Below are positions 1 through 5,403 of a stretch of DNA of 5,403 nt, piece by piece (position 1 is the stretch's first letter; each line of letters begins with the position of its first letter). Made by a program: the position numbers and the translations under genes. Origin of the DNA: a virus (Duplodnaviria; Heunggongvirae; Uroviricota; Caudoviricetes); IMG/VR virus record IMGVR_UViG_2548876959_000002; one strand, 5' to 3'. A model generated the notes under the pieces. The model was not told the origin of the DNA and did not search any database. It saw only the letters and a program-made list of their open reading frames with translations.

Positions 1-59
1 GACTATCACTTATTTAAGTGATACTGGTTGTCTGGAGATTCAGGGGGCCAGTCTAATTC

Positions 60-662
60 TTGGTTAACATGGATAGTATTAAGGGGTCTGGTGCATATTT
101 CCCTATTATCGCTGGCTATAGTAACTTAGGTGATGTTGGTTATCGTCAGTCCTTCGAGTTTGGTTGGACGGGTAGCGGTTCGACTCACGGTTGGCGTACT
201 GGTATTATCCGTATGCGTGGCGATAACGCCAACGGGCAGCAAGCACGCTGGGAATTTACTATGGATGGTGACTTTACCGCAGGTCGTAACGGTAGCTTTA
301 ACGATGTTTACATTCGCTCTGACTCCCGTTTGAAGATTAACAAGGAAGAATTACAGGACGGCGCATTAGAGAAAGTAAACTCCCTGAAAGTCTACACCTA
401 CGATAAAGTTAAATCTCTTTCAGATGACACAGTGATTAAACGCGAAGTAGGTATTATTGCTCAGGATCTGGAAGAAGTGTTGCCGGAAGCAGTAGGTATT
501 CAATCCACCGAAGATCCAGAACAACCGGAAGCAATTAAGACTATTTCTAACTCTGCTGTTAATGCCTTGATTATTAAAGCTATTCAGGAAATGGACGCCA
601 AATATCAAGCTAAGATTGAAGCATTGACTAAAGAGATTGCCGAACTCAAAGCAACTAAATAA
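60..662 (+). CDS. Short fibre-like protein with C-terminal S74-type intramolecular chaperone / autoproteolysis domain
   Basis: Open frame 60-662 with TTG at 60 and first ATG at 69; the true start is uncertain. The C-terminal half carries the S74 hallmark known from endosialidase and tail-fibre chaperone domains: YIRSDSRLKINKEEL (Ser-Asp scissile pair at nt 318-323, Lys five residues on at nt 333-335) followed by GIIAQDLEEVLPEAV. The N-terminal ~87 aa are Gly/Trp/Tyr-rich and beta-like. The same frame has a TAA at 54-56, so this protein cannot extend upstream in frame. Confidence refers to the gene being real; function is by motif recall only. Confidence 0.7.
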   Translation: MVNMDSIKGSGAYFPIIAGYSNLGDVGYRQSFEFGWTGSGSTHGWRTGIIRMRGDNANGQQARWEFTMDGDFTAGRNGSFNDVYIRSDSRLKINKEELQDGALEKVNSLKVYTYDKVKSLSDDTVIKREVGIIAQDLEEVLPEAVGIQSTEDPEQPEAIKTISNSAVNALIIKAIQEMDAKYQAKIEALTKEIAELKATK

Positions 663-669
663 TAAAAGT

Positions 670-688
670 CGGGGGACTAGTTCCCCCG
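670..688 (+). terminator. GC-rich hairpin after the fibre-like gene (weak terminator or RNA-stabilising hairpin candidate)
   Basis: CGGGGGA (670-676) pairs with TCCCCCG (682-688) around the 5-nt loop CTAGT. It starts 8 nt after the TAA at 660-662. No uninterrupted U-tract follows (TAATAACAATTTT), so intrinsic termination would be weak at best. Confidence 0.3.
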
Positions 689-718
689 TAATAACAATTT
701 TAATTAAGGGGTAATTCT

Positions 719-1189
719 ATGTCTCAATTTAATGATATTTTTACTGGTGGTCTGGTAAGTCTGTTCTATCACGCTGATACCACTAACACCGCTCTCGATC
801 ACTCCGGTTACGAAGAAATTAAAGAGTGTGCTGGTTTTCCTGAAACTGGTATCGAGCGCGGTACTGTAGAAGTTAAATCCTTCTCTTCTCAGTATAACCG
901 TAAGCTGGTAGGGAAACTGAACGTTCCTGATCTGACTCTGACCGTTAACTACATCCCAGGCGATGCGGTGCACGAGAAGCTCATTAAAGCTGCCGAAGAC
1001 GGTACTCGAATTCAGATTAAGATTGAATACTATGTTGATGCAGCAAAACAGACTGGTATTCGCACCGCTTTCAACGGCTTTATTTCTAAAGTTGCTATGA
1101 ACGGTGGCGATGAAGAAGTTGTAACCAAAGAGTTTACCTTCGCGGTGGACGGAAAGCCGATCAAACAGGAAATCTTCACTGCCGGATGA
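719..1189 (+). CDS. Major tail tube protein (lambda gpV tube-domain-like, no Ig-like C-terminal domain)
   Basis: ATG at 719 preceded by SD AAGGGG with a 7-nt spacer; 156 aa ending in TGA at 1187-1189. Segments LTLTVNYIPGD / GTRIQIKIEY / FNGFISKVAMNGGDEEVVTKEFTFAVDGKP align by eye with my recollection of lambda gpV (FTLAWMPGEQ / GDTRAYKIRF / [30 protein letters not shown]). Position immediately upstream of the chaperone and tape-measure genes fits. Similarity is judged from memory, not from a search. Confidence 0.8.
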   Translation: MSQFNDIFTGGLVSLFYHADTTNTALDHSGYEEIKECAGFPETGIERGTVEVKSFSSQYNRKLVGKLNVPDLTLTVNYIPGDAVHEKLIKAAEDGTRIQIKIEYYVDAAKQTGIRTAFNGFISKVAMNGGDEEVVTKEFTFAVDGKPIKQEIFTAG

Positions 1190-1315
1190 ACTAACGAAGA
1201 ACTTCCTTTAATAGAACCGGAACCACTACCGGAACATGAAGCGGTGGTGATTCCAGAAGTAGAAGAAGTTACGGCGAAAGCCACAGCAAAACGAGGCCGC
1301 AAGGCTAAGAATTAA
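1190..1315 (+). other. In-frame 41-codon open extension after the UGA stop of the tube gene (candidate readthrough extension)
   Basis: From 1190 to 1312 the tube-gene frame has 41 sense codons and then TAA at 1313-1315. They translate to TNEELPLIEPEPLPEHEAVVIPEVEEVTAKATAKRGRKAKN. There is no in-frame ATG; the only ATG in the region (1236) opens a 4-codon ORF. The terminator hairpin follows this second stop, not the first. Confidence 0.3.
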
Positions 1316-1319
1316 TTTT

Positions 1320-1348
1320 AAGCCCTGCCTTAATGGTGGGGCTTTTTT
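1320..1348 (+). terminator. Rho-independent terminator candidate downstream of the tube gene
   Basis: AAGCCCTGCC (1320-1329) pairs with GGTGGGGCTT (1335-1344), 10 bp including two G-U pairs, around the 5-nt loop TTAAT. It is followed directly by a T-run (GCTTTTTTATT). Confidence 0.6.
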
Positions 1349-1363
1349 ATTGGAGTAATCAAA

Positions 1364-1870
1364 ATGGCAAATGTCGTTAATAAGCCCGGCTGGGTCGGAT
1401 CATCTGCTGTATCGGTGACGGGTAAGCGATGGATGAAAGAAGCATTAACAGCTTTAAAAGTTCCGGCTCCGCGTAATATGTCGGCAATGGCTGGTCGTGG
1501 TATGGATACGGTTGTAGCTACTGCATCGTGGTCTACTTCATTGGGTAATAACTGGGGTGTAACTGCTTCAAACTATCCTGTTTCCGGTATGCAAAGCAAA
1601 GGATCTATGGAGAACCCCGAAAACGTGGGCGTAGGCCGTCTAATTGGCGTTATCGTTGGTCAATTCAATGGCGGTACTCCTACTATGGCTGTATATCTCC
1701 AGAACGGTAGAGCGGGGAATATAACCGTTAATTTGGGTGGTGCTGCTGTCACTGTTCCTTATAACAGTATGCAAAGTGGTTTTCATTACTACTGGTTAAG
1801 CAATCCTCCGGCAGCTTTCCTCAATAACATTAAGAAGACTGGCACTAAGCAGACTTTGAAAATCTCTTAA
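1364..1870 (+). CDS. Hypothetical protein, 168 aa, Gly/Ser/Thr/Asn/Val-rich (possible beta-sandwich structural accessory)
   Basis: ATG at 1364 with SD GGAG at 1352-1355 (8-nt spacer), immediately downstream of the terminator hairpin. There is no N-terminal hydrophobic signal-like segment and no catalytic motif I recognise. Composition and the segment ITVNLGGAAVTVPYN suggest beta-rich structure. Function is unknown. Confidence 0.7.
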   Translation: MANVVNKPGWVGSSAVSVTGKRWMKEALTALKVPAPRNMSAMAGRGMDTVVATASWSTSLGNNWGVTASNYPVSGMQSKGSMENPENVGVGRLIGVIVGQFNGGTPTMAVYLQNGRAGNITVNLGGAAVTVPYNSMQSGFHYYWLSNPPAAFLNNIKKTGTKQTLKIS

Positions 1871-1912
1871 ATTCTAAATAAACATATCGAATTAACTTAA
1901 GAGGAAACAAGA

Positions 1913-2221
1913 ATGAATATTAATGAAATGCTGAAAGCTCTTTCTCCGAAACGCGAATCTCTGACCATCGGTGGATTCACTTTCTATGCTCGCCCTATGT
2001 CAGTAAAAGAATTTAACGAACATGTTTTCAATACCGATAAAGATGACCGTGATGAACGTTCTATTCTTCGTTGTATTGAAGATGAAGACGGTAAACCAGT
2101 ATTTGAATCTATGGAACAAGTTAAGGCACTGTATACTAACGTCCGCAGTGAATTAATCGGTTTGGTTGCTCAAGCGTCATTGATGCAAGATCCGACAGTA
2201 ATTGAAAACGAGGTAAAGTAA
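1913..2221 (+). CDS. Tail assembly chaperone (gpG-like by position)
   Basis: ATG at 1913 with strong SD AAGAGGA upstream; 102 aa, acidic, ending ENEVK then TAA at 2219-2221. It lies directly upstream of the tape measure gene and is overlapped at its 3' end by a -1-frame ORF, the usual G / G-T arrangement. Confidence 0.75.
   Translation: MNINEMLKALSPKRESLTIGGFTFYARPMSVKEFNEHVFNTDKDDRDERSILRCIEDEDGKPVFESMEQVKALYTNVRSELIGLVAQASLMQDPTVIENEVK
2212..2218 (+). promoter_or_regulatory. Candidate -1 programmed frameshift site GGTAAAG, immediately 5' of the G stop codon
   Basis: The -1 frame opens at 2206, after a TGA at 2203-2205, and the G frame stops at 2219-2221, so any shift must occur within 2206-2218. 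The only Lys-slippery element there is G GTA AAG (2212-2218), one base different from the lambda G-T site GGGAAAG. The P-site codon GTA is non-canonical. Confidence 0.4.
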
Positions 2222-2250
2222 ACCCGCTTCTGAATTTCTATTTTCGGCAA

Positions 2251-2592
2251 ATGATGCGATCGGGGCTTAGTAAAGATGAAATGGATAATATGCCAATCAC
2301 TCTGTTTTGGAAATTATACATTTTCGACACCTACTTAGAACCACAAAGCCCCGCGTTTCATGATATGCAGAATGCGATGTTGCAATATTCCATGTATATG
2401 ACGTCGCAAGGAATGACACGCGAAACTGCACGCAAACTCAAGCCTAGCCAATTCCAATTAATTAGAGAAGAAAAACTCTTTAAAACTAAAGAAGAACTGG
2501 AAGAAATTGCACGCAAGAAAGAAGAAGAACGTAAAGCGGCAATGCTGAACATGTTTGATCCATCTTTGCTTGAGAAACTCAGAAGCGGTTAA
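2251..2592 (+). CDS. Tail assembly chaperone T-region (gpT-like), probably expressed as a G-T fusion by -1 frameshift
   Basis: This ORF is in the -1 frame relative to the G-like ORF. The frame is open from 2206, and no SD precedes the first ATG at 2251 (upstream TGAATTTCTATTTTCGGCAA). The product is basic and charged (KTKEELEEIARKKEEERK). It ends at TAA 2590-2592, overlapping the SD of the tape measure gene. Confidence 0.65.
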   Translation: MMRSGLSKDEMDNMPITLFWKLYIFDTYLEPQSPAFHDMQNAMLQYSMYMTSQGMTRETARKLKPSQFQLIREEKLFKTKEELEEIARKKEEERKAAMLNMFDPSLLEKLRSG

Positions 2593-2603
2593 AGGGGTAA
2601 TTT

Positions 2604-5033
2604 ATGACAAAACATATAGTAACAATAGAAGGGGATAATAAAGGTCTAAGGAGAAGTACCAATGAAGCCGCCGACCTTCTCGATAGTTTGTCTGAAAAGG
2701 CAAGTAATATTGATTTTGGTGGTGGCTTATCTGGTCTGACTGGATCTCTTCGTGGGATCGCTGGCTCTGCTGGTTTGGCTGCTGGTGGTATCGGCTTAGT
2801 TGCGACCGCAGTGGTTGCAGCCGCTAAAGCTGGCGCGGAATACGTTAAACAATATTCAGAAGTATCTAAGGCGACCGGACTCTCGATTGAATCCCTTCAA
2901 AGACTGGAAAAGGAATTTTCTGGTACTGGCCTAACAGTTGAAAAATTCGGTGATATCAACAAAGACACCTTAGATAAGATGGGTGATGCATGGGCTAACG
3001 GTGGTGGTATTGCTGATGACTTAGAATCGGTTGGTCTTAAGTTAGAAAACTATGCTCACTTCATGACAGATCCGCAAGGTGGTATGAAAGCGGCGATCCA
3101 AGTGTTCTATGACATGAAGAAAGCCGGAAAATCAATGGCTGAAATCAAGTTCATGATGGAATCTTTAGCCAGTGATTCAAGCCATATGACCAGCCAGCTT
3201 GAGAAATATAATAGTGCTCAAGAGGCGATGATCGCTATTCAGAATCAATCTGTTAACGTCACCGAAGAAAACGCTAAAAAATATGATAAATTTTCTCAGA
3301 ATATTAATAAGCTGGAAAATAACCTGAAAGGCGCAGCCATGACCATTACTGGTCCTTTGGTTGATAGCTTAAACTGGTTATTTGAATGGTTTAATATTGA
3401 TTGGGAAAAGAGTTCTCTATTCAGGGCATTAGACCGTCTGAATAAAGAAGGTAAGACCGCAACTGGTGGTATTCTTAACACCAACCATAAAGACGCTCAA
3501 AAGATTATTGACAAGTACAATAAAGAAAAGCGTTGGAATAATCTAGCAGATTGGGAAAAGGCCGCGATCCGTGGTGCTGGTGTCGATCCTCGTACTGCTG
3601 GCTTTGATGTAGAAGGATTTAAGAAACGTTTTGGTGGGTCTTATAAGAAAAATGGTGCTCTGATTGTCGTAGATGCTGGTGAACATCTGACACGCAAGGC
3701 AGATCCTAACACTGATTTAACTCTACCAAATAAACCAGTAAGACCAGAATCATTGGGTAAATCTGGCAACGAGAAGAAAGCCGAGGAAGAAGCACGCAAG
3801 AAAGCGGAAGAGGCAGCTAAAAAGGCTAAGGAAGCCGCAGAAAAAGCACAGAAAGAACGTGAGGATGCAATCAAGCGTCTGAATGCACTTGATGTTAAAT
3901 TGCAAGGGCAAGTTGCAGCGTCTATTGCTTCTCAAAACAAGCAGTTAGAAGCCAGCTTGAAAGATTTGGATACTGCTTTAGATCTGGGCTTAATCTCTCA
4001 GCAAGACGCAGCCGCGAAACGCCAATCCTTAATCGATCAGAATACTGAAAACGTATACAAGATGATTTTAGGTGCTGATCCGGTTGATGCTCTGAATGCT
4101 TTAACACAATTGCAACAAATCAGGGATAATGAGTTAGAAAGCCATAAACGGTTACTTGATGGTAAGGCTATCTCCTACGAAGAATATATGCGTCGTGTGA
4201 ATGATACCGAACAAAGTTATTCGCAGATTGAAGATTCTTTGCATGGAATGGATGGTTTTAAAACCAATCAGTTGACCAATAGCTTAGACTATCAGGACTC
4301 AAATAATCCGTTTGCTAAATTTAATGCAATCGATAAAGAGAAATCGGAAGCCGAACAAGATTATAAAACCGATAAACTCAAGATTGATGGGATCACCGAT
4401 CCGGCTAAACGGATGGAAGAATTAGAAAAACTCAATGAAAACCATCAAAAACGAATGGCTGCAATTGAGAAGAAATATGCTGATGCTCGCCAGTCAATAG
4501 CCGATGATATGTACGGCGGTTTTGCTGCTGCAATGACTCTCTTCGGGCAGGAAAACACTAAAGCTATGCAGATGGCTTTCAATGCTCATAAAGCATTCTC
4601 TATCGGACAAGCGACGGTGAACATGTGGACGGCTGCTACCGATGCATGGAACGATCCGACCAACGTAACCACAGGTCAAAAAATCGCTGCTGCTGCATTG
4701 GCTGTTTCTCAGAACATGGGGAACATCGCAAACATCAAGTCTACTAACGTTAGCGGTATGGCTCATGATGGTATCGATAATATCCCTCGTGAGGGTACAT
4801 GGTTGCTTGATAAGGGTGAACGAGTAGTTGATCAGCGTACTAACGGTGATTTGAAAGACTTCCTTGCTGCTCAAAAATCAGGCGGTGGCAACTCTCAGCC
4901 GATTGAAGTTAACGCACCTTTGAACATTAACGGCAACGTTAATAGCTCAGACAAGATGGTCATGGATGCTATCAAACGTCACGCTAAGTTAGTTGCTCAG
5001 GCGGTAGAAGACGCACAACGCCGTAAGATGTAA
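2604..5033 (+). CDS. Tail tape measure protein
   Basis: 809-aa ORF with SD AAGGGG and a 7-nt spacer. It has an N-terminal Gly/Ala-rich hydrophobic segment (aa 39-78), a long charged alpha-helical segment (EKKAEEEARKKAEEAAKKAKEAAEKAQKERE), and a C-terminal region with the motif GMAHDGIDNIPREGTWLLDKGERVV, which resembles the conserved C-terminal motif I recall from lambda-family tape measure proteins. Size, composition and position after the G/T pair all fit. Confidence 0.93.
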   Translation: MTKHIVTIEGDNKGLRRSTNEAADLLDSLSEKASNIDFGGGLSGLTGSLRGIAGSAGLAAGGIGLVATAVVAAAKAGAEYVKQYSEVSKATGLSIESLQRLEKEFSGTGLTVEKFGDINKDTLDKMGDAWANGGGIADDLESVGLKLENYAHFMTDPQGGMKAAIQVFYDMKKAGKSMAEIKFMMESLASDSSHMTSQLEKYNSAQEAMIAIQNQSVNVTEENAKKYDKFSQNINKLENNLKGAAMTITGPLVDSLNWLFEWFNIDWEKSSLFRALDRLNKEGKTATGGILNTNHKDAQKIIDKYNKEKRWNNLADWEKAAIRGAGVDPRTAGFDVEGFKKRFGGSYKKNGALIVVDAGEHLTRKADPNTDLTLPNKPVRPESLGKSGNEKKAEEEARKKAEEAAKKAKEAAEKAQKEREDAIKRLNALDVKLQGQVAASIASQNKQLEASLKDLDTALDLGLISQQDAAAKRQSLIDQNTENVYKMILGADPVDALNALTQLQQIRDNELESHKRLLDGKAISYEEYMRRVNDTEQSYSQIEDSLHGMDGFKTNQLTNSLDYQDSNNPFAKFNAIDKEKSEAEQDYKTDKLKIDGITDPAKRMEELEKLNENHQKRMAAIEKKYADARQSIADDMYGGFAAAMTLFGQENTKAMQMAFNAHKAFSIGQATVNMWTAATDAWNDPTNVTTGQKIAAAALAVSQNMGNIANIKSTNVSGMAHDGIDNIPREGTWLLDKGERVVDQRTNGDLKDFLAAQKSGGGNSQPIEVNAPLNINGNVNSSDKMVMDAIKRHAKLVAQAVEDAQRRKM

Positions 5034-5037
5034 TTAA

Positions 5038-5083
5038 AAGCCCCCATAGTCATAAATAATCATAAAACTATGGGGGCTTTTCT
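5038..5083 (+). terminator. Long hairpin with U-rich tail between the tape measure gene and the next gene (terminator or attenuator candidate)
   Basis: AAGCCCCCATAGT (5038-5050) pairs perfectly with ACTATGGGGGCTT (5067-5079), 13 bp, around the 16-nt A/T-rich loop CATAAATAATCATAAA. It is followed by TTTTCT and then the ATG at 5084. The loop is large for a classical intrinsic terminator. Confidence 0.5.
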
Positions 5084-5371
5084 ATGTTCAAATCCAAGAA
5101 TATTAAAATCACAGATTTTACTCTTAAATCAAAACAGCCTTTCTTCAAGGCGCAATCTATCTCCGGTAAATTTCAACGTCGCTTTACTGGCATTCATTTT
5201 TACGAAGCAGAATTTACCGCGAATTACATGGCTCAGGATATTAACGAAGTAAAAGAATTTGTAGCACGTCACCTTTTTGGTCGTCCTTTTAGTGTGCCAC
5301 TGTCTTACTTTTCAAAATATACAGGTGATGTACGCCAGATGGTTACGGCGGTAATGACTCCAACTTATTGA
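5084..5371 (+). CDS. Small minor tail protein (gpM-like by position and size)
   Basis: 95-aa ORF immediately after the tape measure gene, ending in TGA at 5369-5371. Size and position match lambda gpM-type minor tail proteins; my sequence recollection is too weak to assert homology. The only SD-like sequence (GGGGG, 5072-5076) lies within the 3' arm of the upstream hairpin. Confidence 0.65.
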   Translation: MFKSKNIKITDFTLKSKQPFFKAQSISGKFQRRFTGIHFYEAEFTANYMAQDINEVKEFVARHLFGRPFSVPLSYFSKYTGDVRQMVTAVMTPTY

Positions 5372-5403
5372 TAGTGTTTTATGTTCAGATAATGCCCGAT
5401 GAC

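Follow-up and report, generated by a model that had tools for sequence, protein, structure and literature searches.

How is the second of two overlapping tail genes translated when it lies in another reading frame from the first and lacks a convincing start of its own? The question is raised by a 5,403-nucleotide stretch of viral DNA (Caudoviricetes; IMG/VR record IMGVR_UViG_2548876959_000002), referred to below, at its full length, as the window. Here an open reading frame (ORF) resembling the lambda tail assembly chaperone gene G ends within a T-like frame displaced by -1. A -1 frameshift that makes a small amount of a fused tail assembly chaperone is usual in long-tailed phages. A G-T fusion produced by a -1 shift at 2215-2218 of the window is well supported by comparative evidence, and from the alignments we consider it very probable. 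In lambda, G-T frameshifting is low-level and widely conserved, with GT being made at about 1 in 30 (PMC5009743). The elements of the junction, all on the plus strand, are as follows.

1913..2221, +: G-like tail assembly chaperone ORF, 102 residues, ending ...ENEVK (from the ORF and its translation; Shine-Dalgarno (SD) duplex -6.0 kcal/mol)
2203..2205, +: TGA that shuts the -1 (T) frame and bounds the shift window on its 5' side (seen on translating the -1 frame; relative L102 has this TGA too, within ATTGAA)
2212..2218, +: position of the G_GTA_AAG heptamer, with GTA and AAG as zero-frame codons
2215..2218, +: A_AAG, the putative slip-site core, in which AAG is Lys102 of G and AAA is a Lys codon in the T frame
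2219..2221, +: TAA that ends G, immediately after the slip codon
2218..2592, +: T-frame segment after the predicted shift, 124 codons (VNPLL...LRSG) closed by TAA 2590-2592, giving a G-T fusion of 226 residues
2222..2250, +: linker from the G stop to the first T-frame ATG, without a start codon and coding in the T frame only

The -1 frame is open from 2206 to the TAA at 2590-2592. Since it is closed upstream by the TGA at 2203-2205 and G stops at 2219-2221, any shift must fall within 2206-2218, a window of 13 nucleotides. These limits had been given in a preliminary description of the locus and were borne out by translation. The same description took G_GTA_AAG to be a one-base variant of the lambda site G_GGA_AAG, in agreement with our comparison of the two sequences, and called it the only slippery element. 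This overlooked a second Z_ZZN tetramer in the overlap, A_AAC 2206-2209 (within T_GAA_AAC). We rejected A_AAC as an alternative slip site, as A_AA.C is not among the shift-prone tetramers in E. coli (PMC4066793) and most lineages lack the motif. Of the 1636 codons in the ORFs of the window, 9 show an in-frame A_AAG, so its presence in a four-codon stretch has a chance probability of ~2%; its conservation across the aligned relatives is the stronger argument.

In the proposed mechanism, most ribosomes would stop at TAA 2219-2221 and yield the 102-residue G-like protein, while a minority would slip by -1 with tRNA-Lys (anticodon mnm5s2UUU) on AAG 2216-2218. The tRNA would re-pair with AAA 2215-2217, GUA 2218-2220 would be decoded next, and the T frame would be read to 2592. 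The resulting fusion of 226 residues would read ...ENEVK-VNPLLNFYFRQMM..., and the junction peptide proposed earlier, ...ENEVK-VNPLLNFYFR..., matches the translation of a shift at G_GTA_AAG. If lambda gpG/gpGT is a guide, the tape measure protein would be bound through the G part and the tail tube protein recruited through the T part, the slip frequency setting a fixed low ratio of G to GT. The actual shifting of ribosomes, its efficiency, the ribosomal site occupied by the tRNA at the slip and the role in assembly are what we infer from this model.

Relatives of the locus were collected from viral contigs, genome contigs, metagenomes and one deposited phage. The set comprises 33 distinct G-T DNA sequences and further metagenome lineages, with fusion proteins 33-100% identical to that of the window. 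For the slip site, 14 lineage representatives were aligned with the last in-frame A_AAG as anchor. All 14 have A|AAG without change, and the adjoining positions vary. The codon 5' of AAG is GTA, GAA or TTA, and the base before that codon is G, A or T; the heptamer positions in relatives read A_GTA_AAG, G_GAA_AAG, A_GAA_AAG and T_TTA_AAG. A_AAG is also the sole Z_ZZN motif common to all overlaps. The preliminary description had pointed to conservation of GGTAAAG and the adjacent stop as a check on the shift, with the lack of any conserved slippery element among relatives counting against it. The tetramer A_AAG is kept throughout, and the proposed shift thus withstood this check; the full heptamer and the adjacency of the stop vary.

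The arrangement of the frames is equally constant. A long -1 ORF overlaps the end of G in 33/33 distinct sequences, by 13 to 106 nucleotides, the further metagenome lineages retain the -1 overlap as well, and the T-like ORF lies in the -1 frame at each of the 12 relative loci where both alternative frames were checked, the +1 ORFs being short. A 3-nucleotide insertion in L018 (GTA_AAG_TAG_TAA; L018/L042 junction) leaves both frames intact, and in L101 (1800-1821) the adjacent stop has been lost through a TAA-to-AAA change, making G longer by 4 codons. In phage DCP80 (PQ671644; 33% identity), a canonical T_TTA_AAG stands at the homologous Lys codon. This is the only canonical heptamer among the relatives, whereas the window has the A_AAG tetramer only. 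From the slip-site Lys onward, the T frame of DCP80 (FKADWVKRFRY...) aligns with that of L102 (SKVNWAKRFKY...).

Two of the relatives stand out by their source. DCP80 (L104, PQ671644.1 8777-19342) is the sole deposited phage genome with a G-T relative. Its 141-kb record is filed under Straboviridae/Tevenvirinae, yet it has an arrangement of tube, G/T and tape-measure-sized genes; all genes in its G-T region are annotated as hypothetical, and the frameshift is unmarked. L067 (JBEBQJ010000175.1) is the single genome-contig locus found, on a contig of 10 kb from a metagenome-assembled genome that bears the label Sphingobacterium yanglingense. Over the G-T region it hardly differs from contigs of gut and other metagenomes (L117-L120), and the binning or host assignment of L067 may be wrong.

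Without a frameshift, T would have to be made separately, either by re-initiation at ATG 2251 or 2254 or from a start at ATG 2281 or 2290. These are the in-frame ATGs of the T frame; the latter two are preceded by weak SD-like matches, and RefSeq/PGAP calls a 100-residue protein from ATG 2290. The sequence upstream of these codons makes separate synthesis an improbable account. The 29-nucleotide linker preceding the first ATG (2222-2250) varies like coding sequence in no frame but T: seven gap-free haplotypes differ at 12 of its sites, 8 of which are silent in the T frame, as against 2/12 and 1/12 in the other frames. F109, which is encoded in the linker, is invariant in 8/8 aligned lineages. 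In L103, L123 and DCP80, the invariant residues F109, R116, G118 and L119 all lie upstream of the first T-frame Met, and some relatives have no Met at all in that stretch. The -1 placement of the T-like ORF and the -1 overlap with its invariant A_AAG, kept down to 33% identity, likewise speak against it.

Start signals give a similar picture. The predicted anti-SD duplexes of ATG 2251 and ATG 2254 (-1.1 and -1.7 kcal/mol) compare with -5.9 to -8.4 kcal/mol for five other gene starts of the window, in line with the earlier statement that the T frame has no SD of its own. A CTG start at 2230 behind GAGGT was considered and rejected: the spacing is ~15 nucleotides, and relatives conserve neither the GAGG nor the CTG, which is TTA in L090. 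No terminator-like site was found between G and T. Taken together, the frame arrangement, the conserved tetramer, the canonical relative, the coding linker and the absent start signals make independent initiation of T appear unlikely, and we place entry into the T frame at the Lys codon of A_AAG. The invariant tetramer and the linker that codes in the T frame without a start signal thus favour expression as a G-T fusion, as had been suggested before.

Annotation has followed the separate genes. In the RefSeq record, T starts at ATG 2290 (100 residues; 2290-2592 of the window, 22235-22537 of L001), which omits 24 conserved codons. The match list for other E. coli genomes mostly shows 'hypothetical protein' labels over the G-T region. 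RefSeq holds proteins identical to G and T of the window (WP_024245689.1 and WP_001434083.1), yet a homology search of 5.8 billion proteins with the fusion protein returned 0 matches at E <= 0.001.

The variation around the tetramer bears on the type of slip. In the window, re-pairing of the P-site tRNA from GUA to GGU would be possible at 2/3 positions only, and the corresponding -1 re-pairings among relatives are GUA to AGU and GAA to GGA or AGA. Because the 5' codon and the preceding base are not conserved for re-pairing, re-pairing of the P-site tRNA cannot be essential. Judging from the alignment, it is not classical tandem slippage that is conserved, but a putative shift by tRNA-Lys alone. 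The site is thus of the minimal NNA_AAG type, in which a shift-prone tRNA-Lys reads A_AAG and the preceding tRNA re-pairs poorly or not at all. In E. coli, a single tRNA-Lys decodes both AAA and AAG, and A_AAG is prone to shifting (PMC5009743); of 16 tetramers tested there, A_AA.G shifts by far the most readily (PMC4066793). NNA_AAG sites function in B. subtilis cdd and in IS1222, with an efficiency that depends on the 5' codon (PMC5009743).

Several candidates for an additional or alternative signal were discarded. A downstream stimulatory RNA was rejected since the minimum free energy is weaker than that of shuffled sequences, the consensus fold is negligible (values below) and Rfam gave no match at the slip site. 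An internal SD, GAGG 2210-2213, lies 1 nucleotide before A_AAG and is absent from L090, L102, L067, L103 and L121-L124. Transcriptional slippage was dismissed as the longest A run is only 3-4 bases.

A number of results weigh against the frameshift reading. RefSeq/PGAP (NZ_CM149869.1) lists G and T as separate 'hypothetical protein' entries with no programmed frameshift marked. The weak SD-like sequences at ATG 2281 (-5.0 kcal/mol) and ATG 2290 (-3.1 kcal/mol) may allow some free T-domain protein to be made. Resemblance to the known protein families is weak. G matches phrog_344 'tail assembly chaperone' (E 8e-7), but reaches only 21.5 bits with PF16459 (Phage_TAC_13), below the gathering threshold of 28.8; 7/8 family members match this profile, the best at E 1e-5. 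T likewise scores 21.5 bits with PF06223 (Phage_tail_T; gathering threshold 25.9), a profile matched by 4/8 relatives with a best E of 1.9e-6, and hhalign matches it only poorly to lambda T (E 0.016, probability 2.8%). A sequence search of solved structures found no relative of G. At the level of RNA, segments of 82 and 151 nucleotides around and after the site are less stable than their shuffled versions (z +1.25 and +1.49), and a consensus structure computed from seven relatives reaches only -1.18 kcal/mol. In reporters, tetramers without a stimulator gave 0.147% frameshifting against a background of 0.112% (PMC4066793). How a useful level of shifting would be reached with no stimulator detected is therefore a real gap.

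One candidate to fill this gap is the stop codon itself. The distance from AAG to the G stop differs among the lineages as follows.

0 codons: the window, L023, L018, L090, L102, L067 and L117 (window clade, L090, L102 and the L067/L117 clade)
1 codon: L103, L122, L123 and L124
4 codons: L101, through a single T-to-A change of TAA
10-11 codons: DCP80 and L121 (L121 with the tetramer only)

The adjacent stops are UAA or UAG (TAG in one variant), never UGA. A stop-stimulated slip would take place with peptidyl-tRNA-Lys in the P site on AAG and UAA in the empty A site; slow binding of a release factor would allow a one-tRNA slip by -1, after which the abundant Val-tRNA would read GUA. The adjacent stop would in this way make up for the missing heptamer and structure. 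The scheme makes sense mechanistically, and we regard it as possible but doubtful. It fits the direct adjacency of AAG and stop in the window and several other representatives, the L018 insertion variant, which again has a stop (TAG) directly after AAG, and DCP80, where a full canonical heptamer goes with a stop 10 codons away. No other stimulator was found, and one-tRNA 'hungry' slippage in the P site with a vacant A site has been documented without downstream structure (PMC6771820). Other representatives, by contrast, keep A_AAG with a sense codon next to it (AAC, AAA or CCC where the stop comes 1 codon later), and L121 has the tetramer only, without a nearby stop. UAA is moreover read by both release factors, which makes it an efficient terminator and not a notoriously slow stop.

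As the relatives with a distant stop keep A_AAG, the frameshift of the family does not depend on an adjacent stop; stimulation by the stop may tentatively be considered for the window clade, and the family's frameshift does not require it. The preliminary description had proposed P-site slippage of tRNA-Lys stimulated by the stop. Its first half, a shift by tRNA-Lys only, is reasonable given the varying 5' codon, while stimulation by the stop is not established. The further notion that natural selection has produced a -1 'shifty stop' free of RNA structure in this clade, a one-tRNA P-site slip of tRNA-Lys on A_AAG_UAA competing with the release factors, calls for the same reserve.

The surroundings of the junction are those of a tail module. 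In the window, the gene order is tail tube, gp38-like gene, G (1913-2221), T frame (2206-2592) and tape measure, the flanking genes being the following.

719..1189, +: tail tube (major tail) protein gene (PF16460 Phage_TTP_11, 29.0 bits, gathering threshold 28.4; phrog_158 major tail protein, E 7e-22)
1364-1870: gp38-like adhesin gene (Gp38_N), from a profile search
2604..5033, +: tape measure protein gene, 809 residues (phrog_13674, E 9e-64; label in RefSeq NZ_CM149869.1)

The tape measure gene is the expected downstream partner of G/GT, and the tail tube protein is the expected binding partner of the T domain.

By position and architecture, the site belongs with the conserved G/GT frameshift of long-tailed phages, whereas membership of the G/GT families at the level of sequence is weakly supported. 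As in lambda gpG/gpGT (G_GGA_AAG), the pair immediately precedes the tape measure gene, the slip would occur at AAG (Lys), and the second ORF lacks its own start and overlaps the first, at the end of the latter, in the -1 frame. Both T frames open with Gly-Lys-Val (GKVFDG... in lambda, GKVNPL... in the window), and there is weak family-level similarity to the Pfam Phage_tail_T and TAC families. Unlike the lambda site, the heptamer of the window is not of the form X_XXY_YYZ: its third base is U (A in relatives) where lambda has G, which prevents full re-pairing of the P-site tRNA. The same base distinguishes G_GAA_AAG of other lineages from the lambda site. The stop follows the slip codon directly in the window and 5 sense codons later in lambda, the tube gene and G of the window are separated by a gp38-like adhesin gene, and the sequence similarity to lambda G and T is marginal. 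To our knowledge, the lambda G-T frameshift needs no downstream structure.

What the site lacks among the defining features is the canonical heptamer, and this puts it in the NNA_AAG class. With the sites of the IS3 family, IS1222 (G_CGA_AAG) and B. subtilis cdd (A_CGA_AAG), it shares A_AAG behind a non-repetitive 5' codon, reliance on a shift-prone single tRNA-Lys(UUU) and a low-level shift that extends or fuses a protein (PMC5009743, PMC4066793). It differs in having GUA or GAA, not CGA, as the 5' codon in its family, and in serving phage tail assembly and not transposase synthesis. The cdd and IS1222 frameshifts depend in addition on an upstream SD or a downstream structure. In reporter experiments, tetramers needed the IS3 pseudoknot to exceed the background (PMC4066793), whereas the window has no detectable or conserved stimulator.

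One-tRNA slippage of the 'hungry' or 'shifty stop' kind (dnaX, HIV-1 FFR) resembles the proposed event in that the next codon prolongs an empty A site and no structure is involved (PMC6771820). In the cases described in PMC6771820 and PMC5009743, however, the 'hungry' -1 slips arise under limitation of aminoacyl-tRNA, and the 'shifty stop' events are +1 frameshifts; nor is adjacency of the stop conserved across the family of the window. Non-canonical motifs in chaperone frameshifts are already recognised (PMC10885494). Many of the actinobacteriophage chaperone motifs treated by PRFect (e.g. 'twoonefour') lack XXXYYY, and their slip sites lie near the zero-frame stop (mean 26 nucleotides); they are inferred from annotation in high-GC phages, and G_GTA_AAG (two-one-three-N) is not among the listed classes (PMC10885494). 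The site of the window is thus a non-heptameric member of the well-known lambda G/GT class, unannotated in the RefSeq record examined.

The window comes from the tail module of a siphovirus-type prophage of E. coli. Positions 56-5349 have a 100% identical counterpart in a prophage of strain HCP5S3_I4 (NZ_CM149869.1), and prophages in many other complete E. coli genomes match these positions at 91-97% identity, the prophage family occurring in dozens of such genomes. Searches with the window found no match among plasmids, and deposited phage genomes gave fragmentary matches only. The module order in RefSeq (NZ_CM149869.1) is terminase, portal, capsid, a 3.6-kb tail fibre gene, tail tube, gp38-like adhesin, two small hypotheticals, tape measure and tail tip genes. 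Positions 1-55 of the window are the end of an IS2 element (left), and positions 5350-5403 are the end of an IS1 element (right). The prophage piece between these insertion sequence (IS) ends has its 5' edge within the tail fibre gene and its 3' edge within the gene after the tape measure gene. This IS-flanked arrangement was found in 0/5,426 complete E. coli genomes searched, where the best matches span 56-5349 only.

A 5.3-kb prophage piece flanked by the ends of IS2 and IS1 may be part of a remnant in this copy, and the junction could accordingly be viewed as a decaying pseudogene in a defective prophage fragment, with a functionless slip site. The truncated T frame of L115 points the same way. 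This interpretation is highly improbable: apparently complete prophages in many E. coli genomes share the junction, as do viral contigs of 30-45 kb, and both ORFs are under purifying selection across divergent lineages. L115 itself (1794-1925), with its truncated T frame, is a low-coverage contig from a food metagenome.

Other parts of the tail module have features of their own. Profile matches for the C-terminus of the tail fibre (60-662 of the window) are to families of the T4-like long tail fibre distal subunit and to a Peptidase_S74 chaperone domain; ~300 nucleotides of the fibre are 90% identical to the 164-kb phage Cognac. Receptor-binding parts of T-even type are found within a siphovirus tail module, with the Gp38_N adhesin gene placed between the tube and chaperone genes.

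The tail tube gene (719-1315 including an extension) looks like a candidate for programmed UGA readthrough, predicted to give a minor, C-terminally extended tube protein (+41 residues). Its TGA at 1187-1189 is followed by 41 in-frame sense codons (1190-1312; TNEELPLIEPEPLPEHEAVVIPEVEEVTAKATAKRGRKAKN) and a TAA at 1313-1315, after which a terminator hairpin is found at 1320-1344. The tube stop is TGA in 15/15 distinct relatives of this segment. In these, the extension measures 126, 120 or 111 nucleotides including the stop, a multiple of three despite deletions of 6 and 15 nucleotides, and a 3-nucleotide insertion upstream of the TGA keeps the phase. No start codon is present at the beginning of the extension, and silent sites are enriched in the tube frame (13/36 vs 6/36 and 7/36). 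In L101, whose tube protein is 60% identical, there is no stop, and the ORF continues to a related tail (...NVIPEAVAAKEK, compared with ...AVVIPEVEEVTAKATAKRGRKAKN in the window). The readthrough junction of the predicted extended protein would be ...EIFTAG-X-TNEELPLIEPEPLPEHEAVVIPEVEEVTAK, where X would probably be Trp. A core hairpin at 1219-1254, 32 nucleotides after the UGA, could act as a readthrough stimulator; the segment 1200-1270 folds at -22.3 kcal/mol and beats 200/200 shuffled sequences (z -3.39). On visual inspection, some substitutions in relatives preserve its pairs and others disrupt them, so that the covariation is ambiguous. Extended major tail proteins are made by +1 frameshifting in Listeria phages (2016 recoding review), and our literature search yielded no paper describing readthrough in a phage major tail protein.

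For annotation, the predicted G-T fusion would mean that the RefSeq start of T is wrong, the correct product being a protein of 226 residues joined at 2218. The general picture of G-T frameshifting is unchanged by this locus. What its family offers is a natural series, T_TTA_AAG, G/A_GTA_AAG and G/A_GAA_AAG with the stop 0-11 codons away, in which only A_AAG is conserved. Such a series is useful for those frameshift prediction tools that now require heptamers, and it offers a ready means of testing how far low-level -1 shifting in the absence of RNA structure depends on the 5' codon and on an adjacent stop. If the stop did prove to be the stimulator, the ratio of G to GT, and hence tail assembly, would be coupled to the termination capacity of the host.

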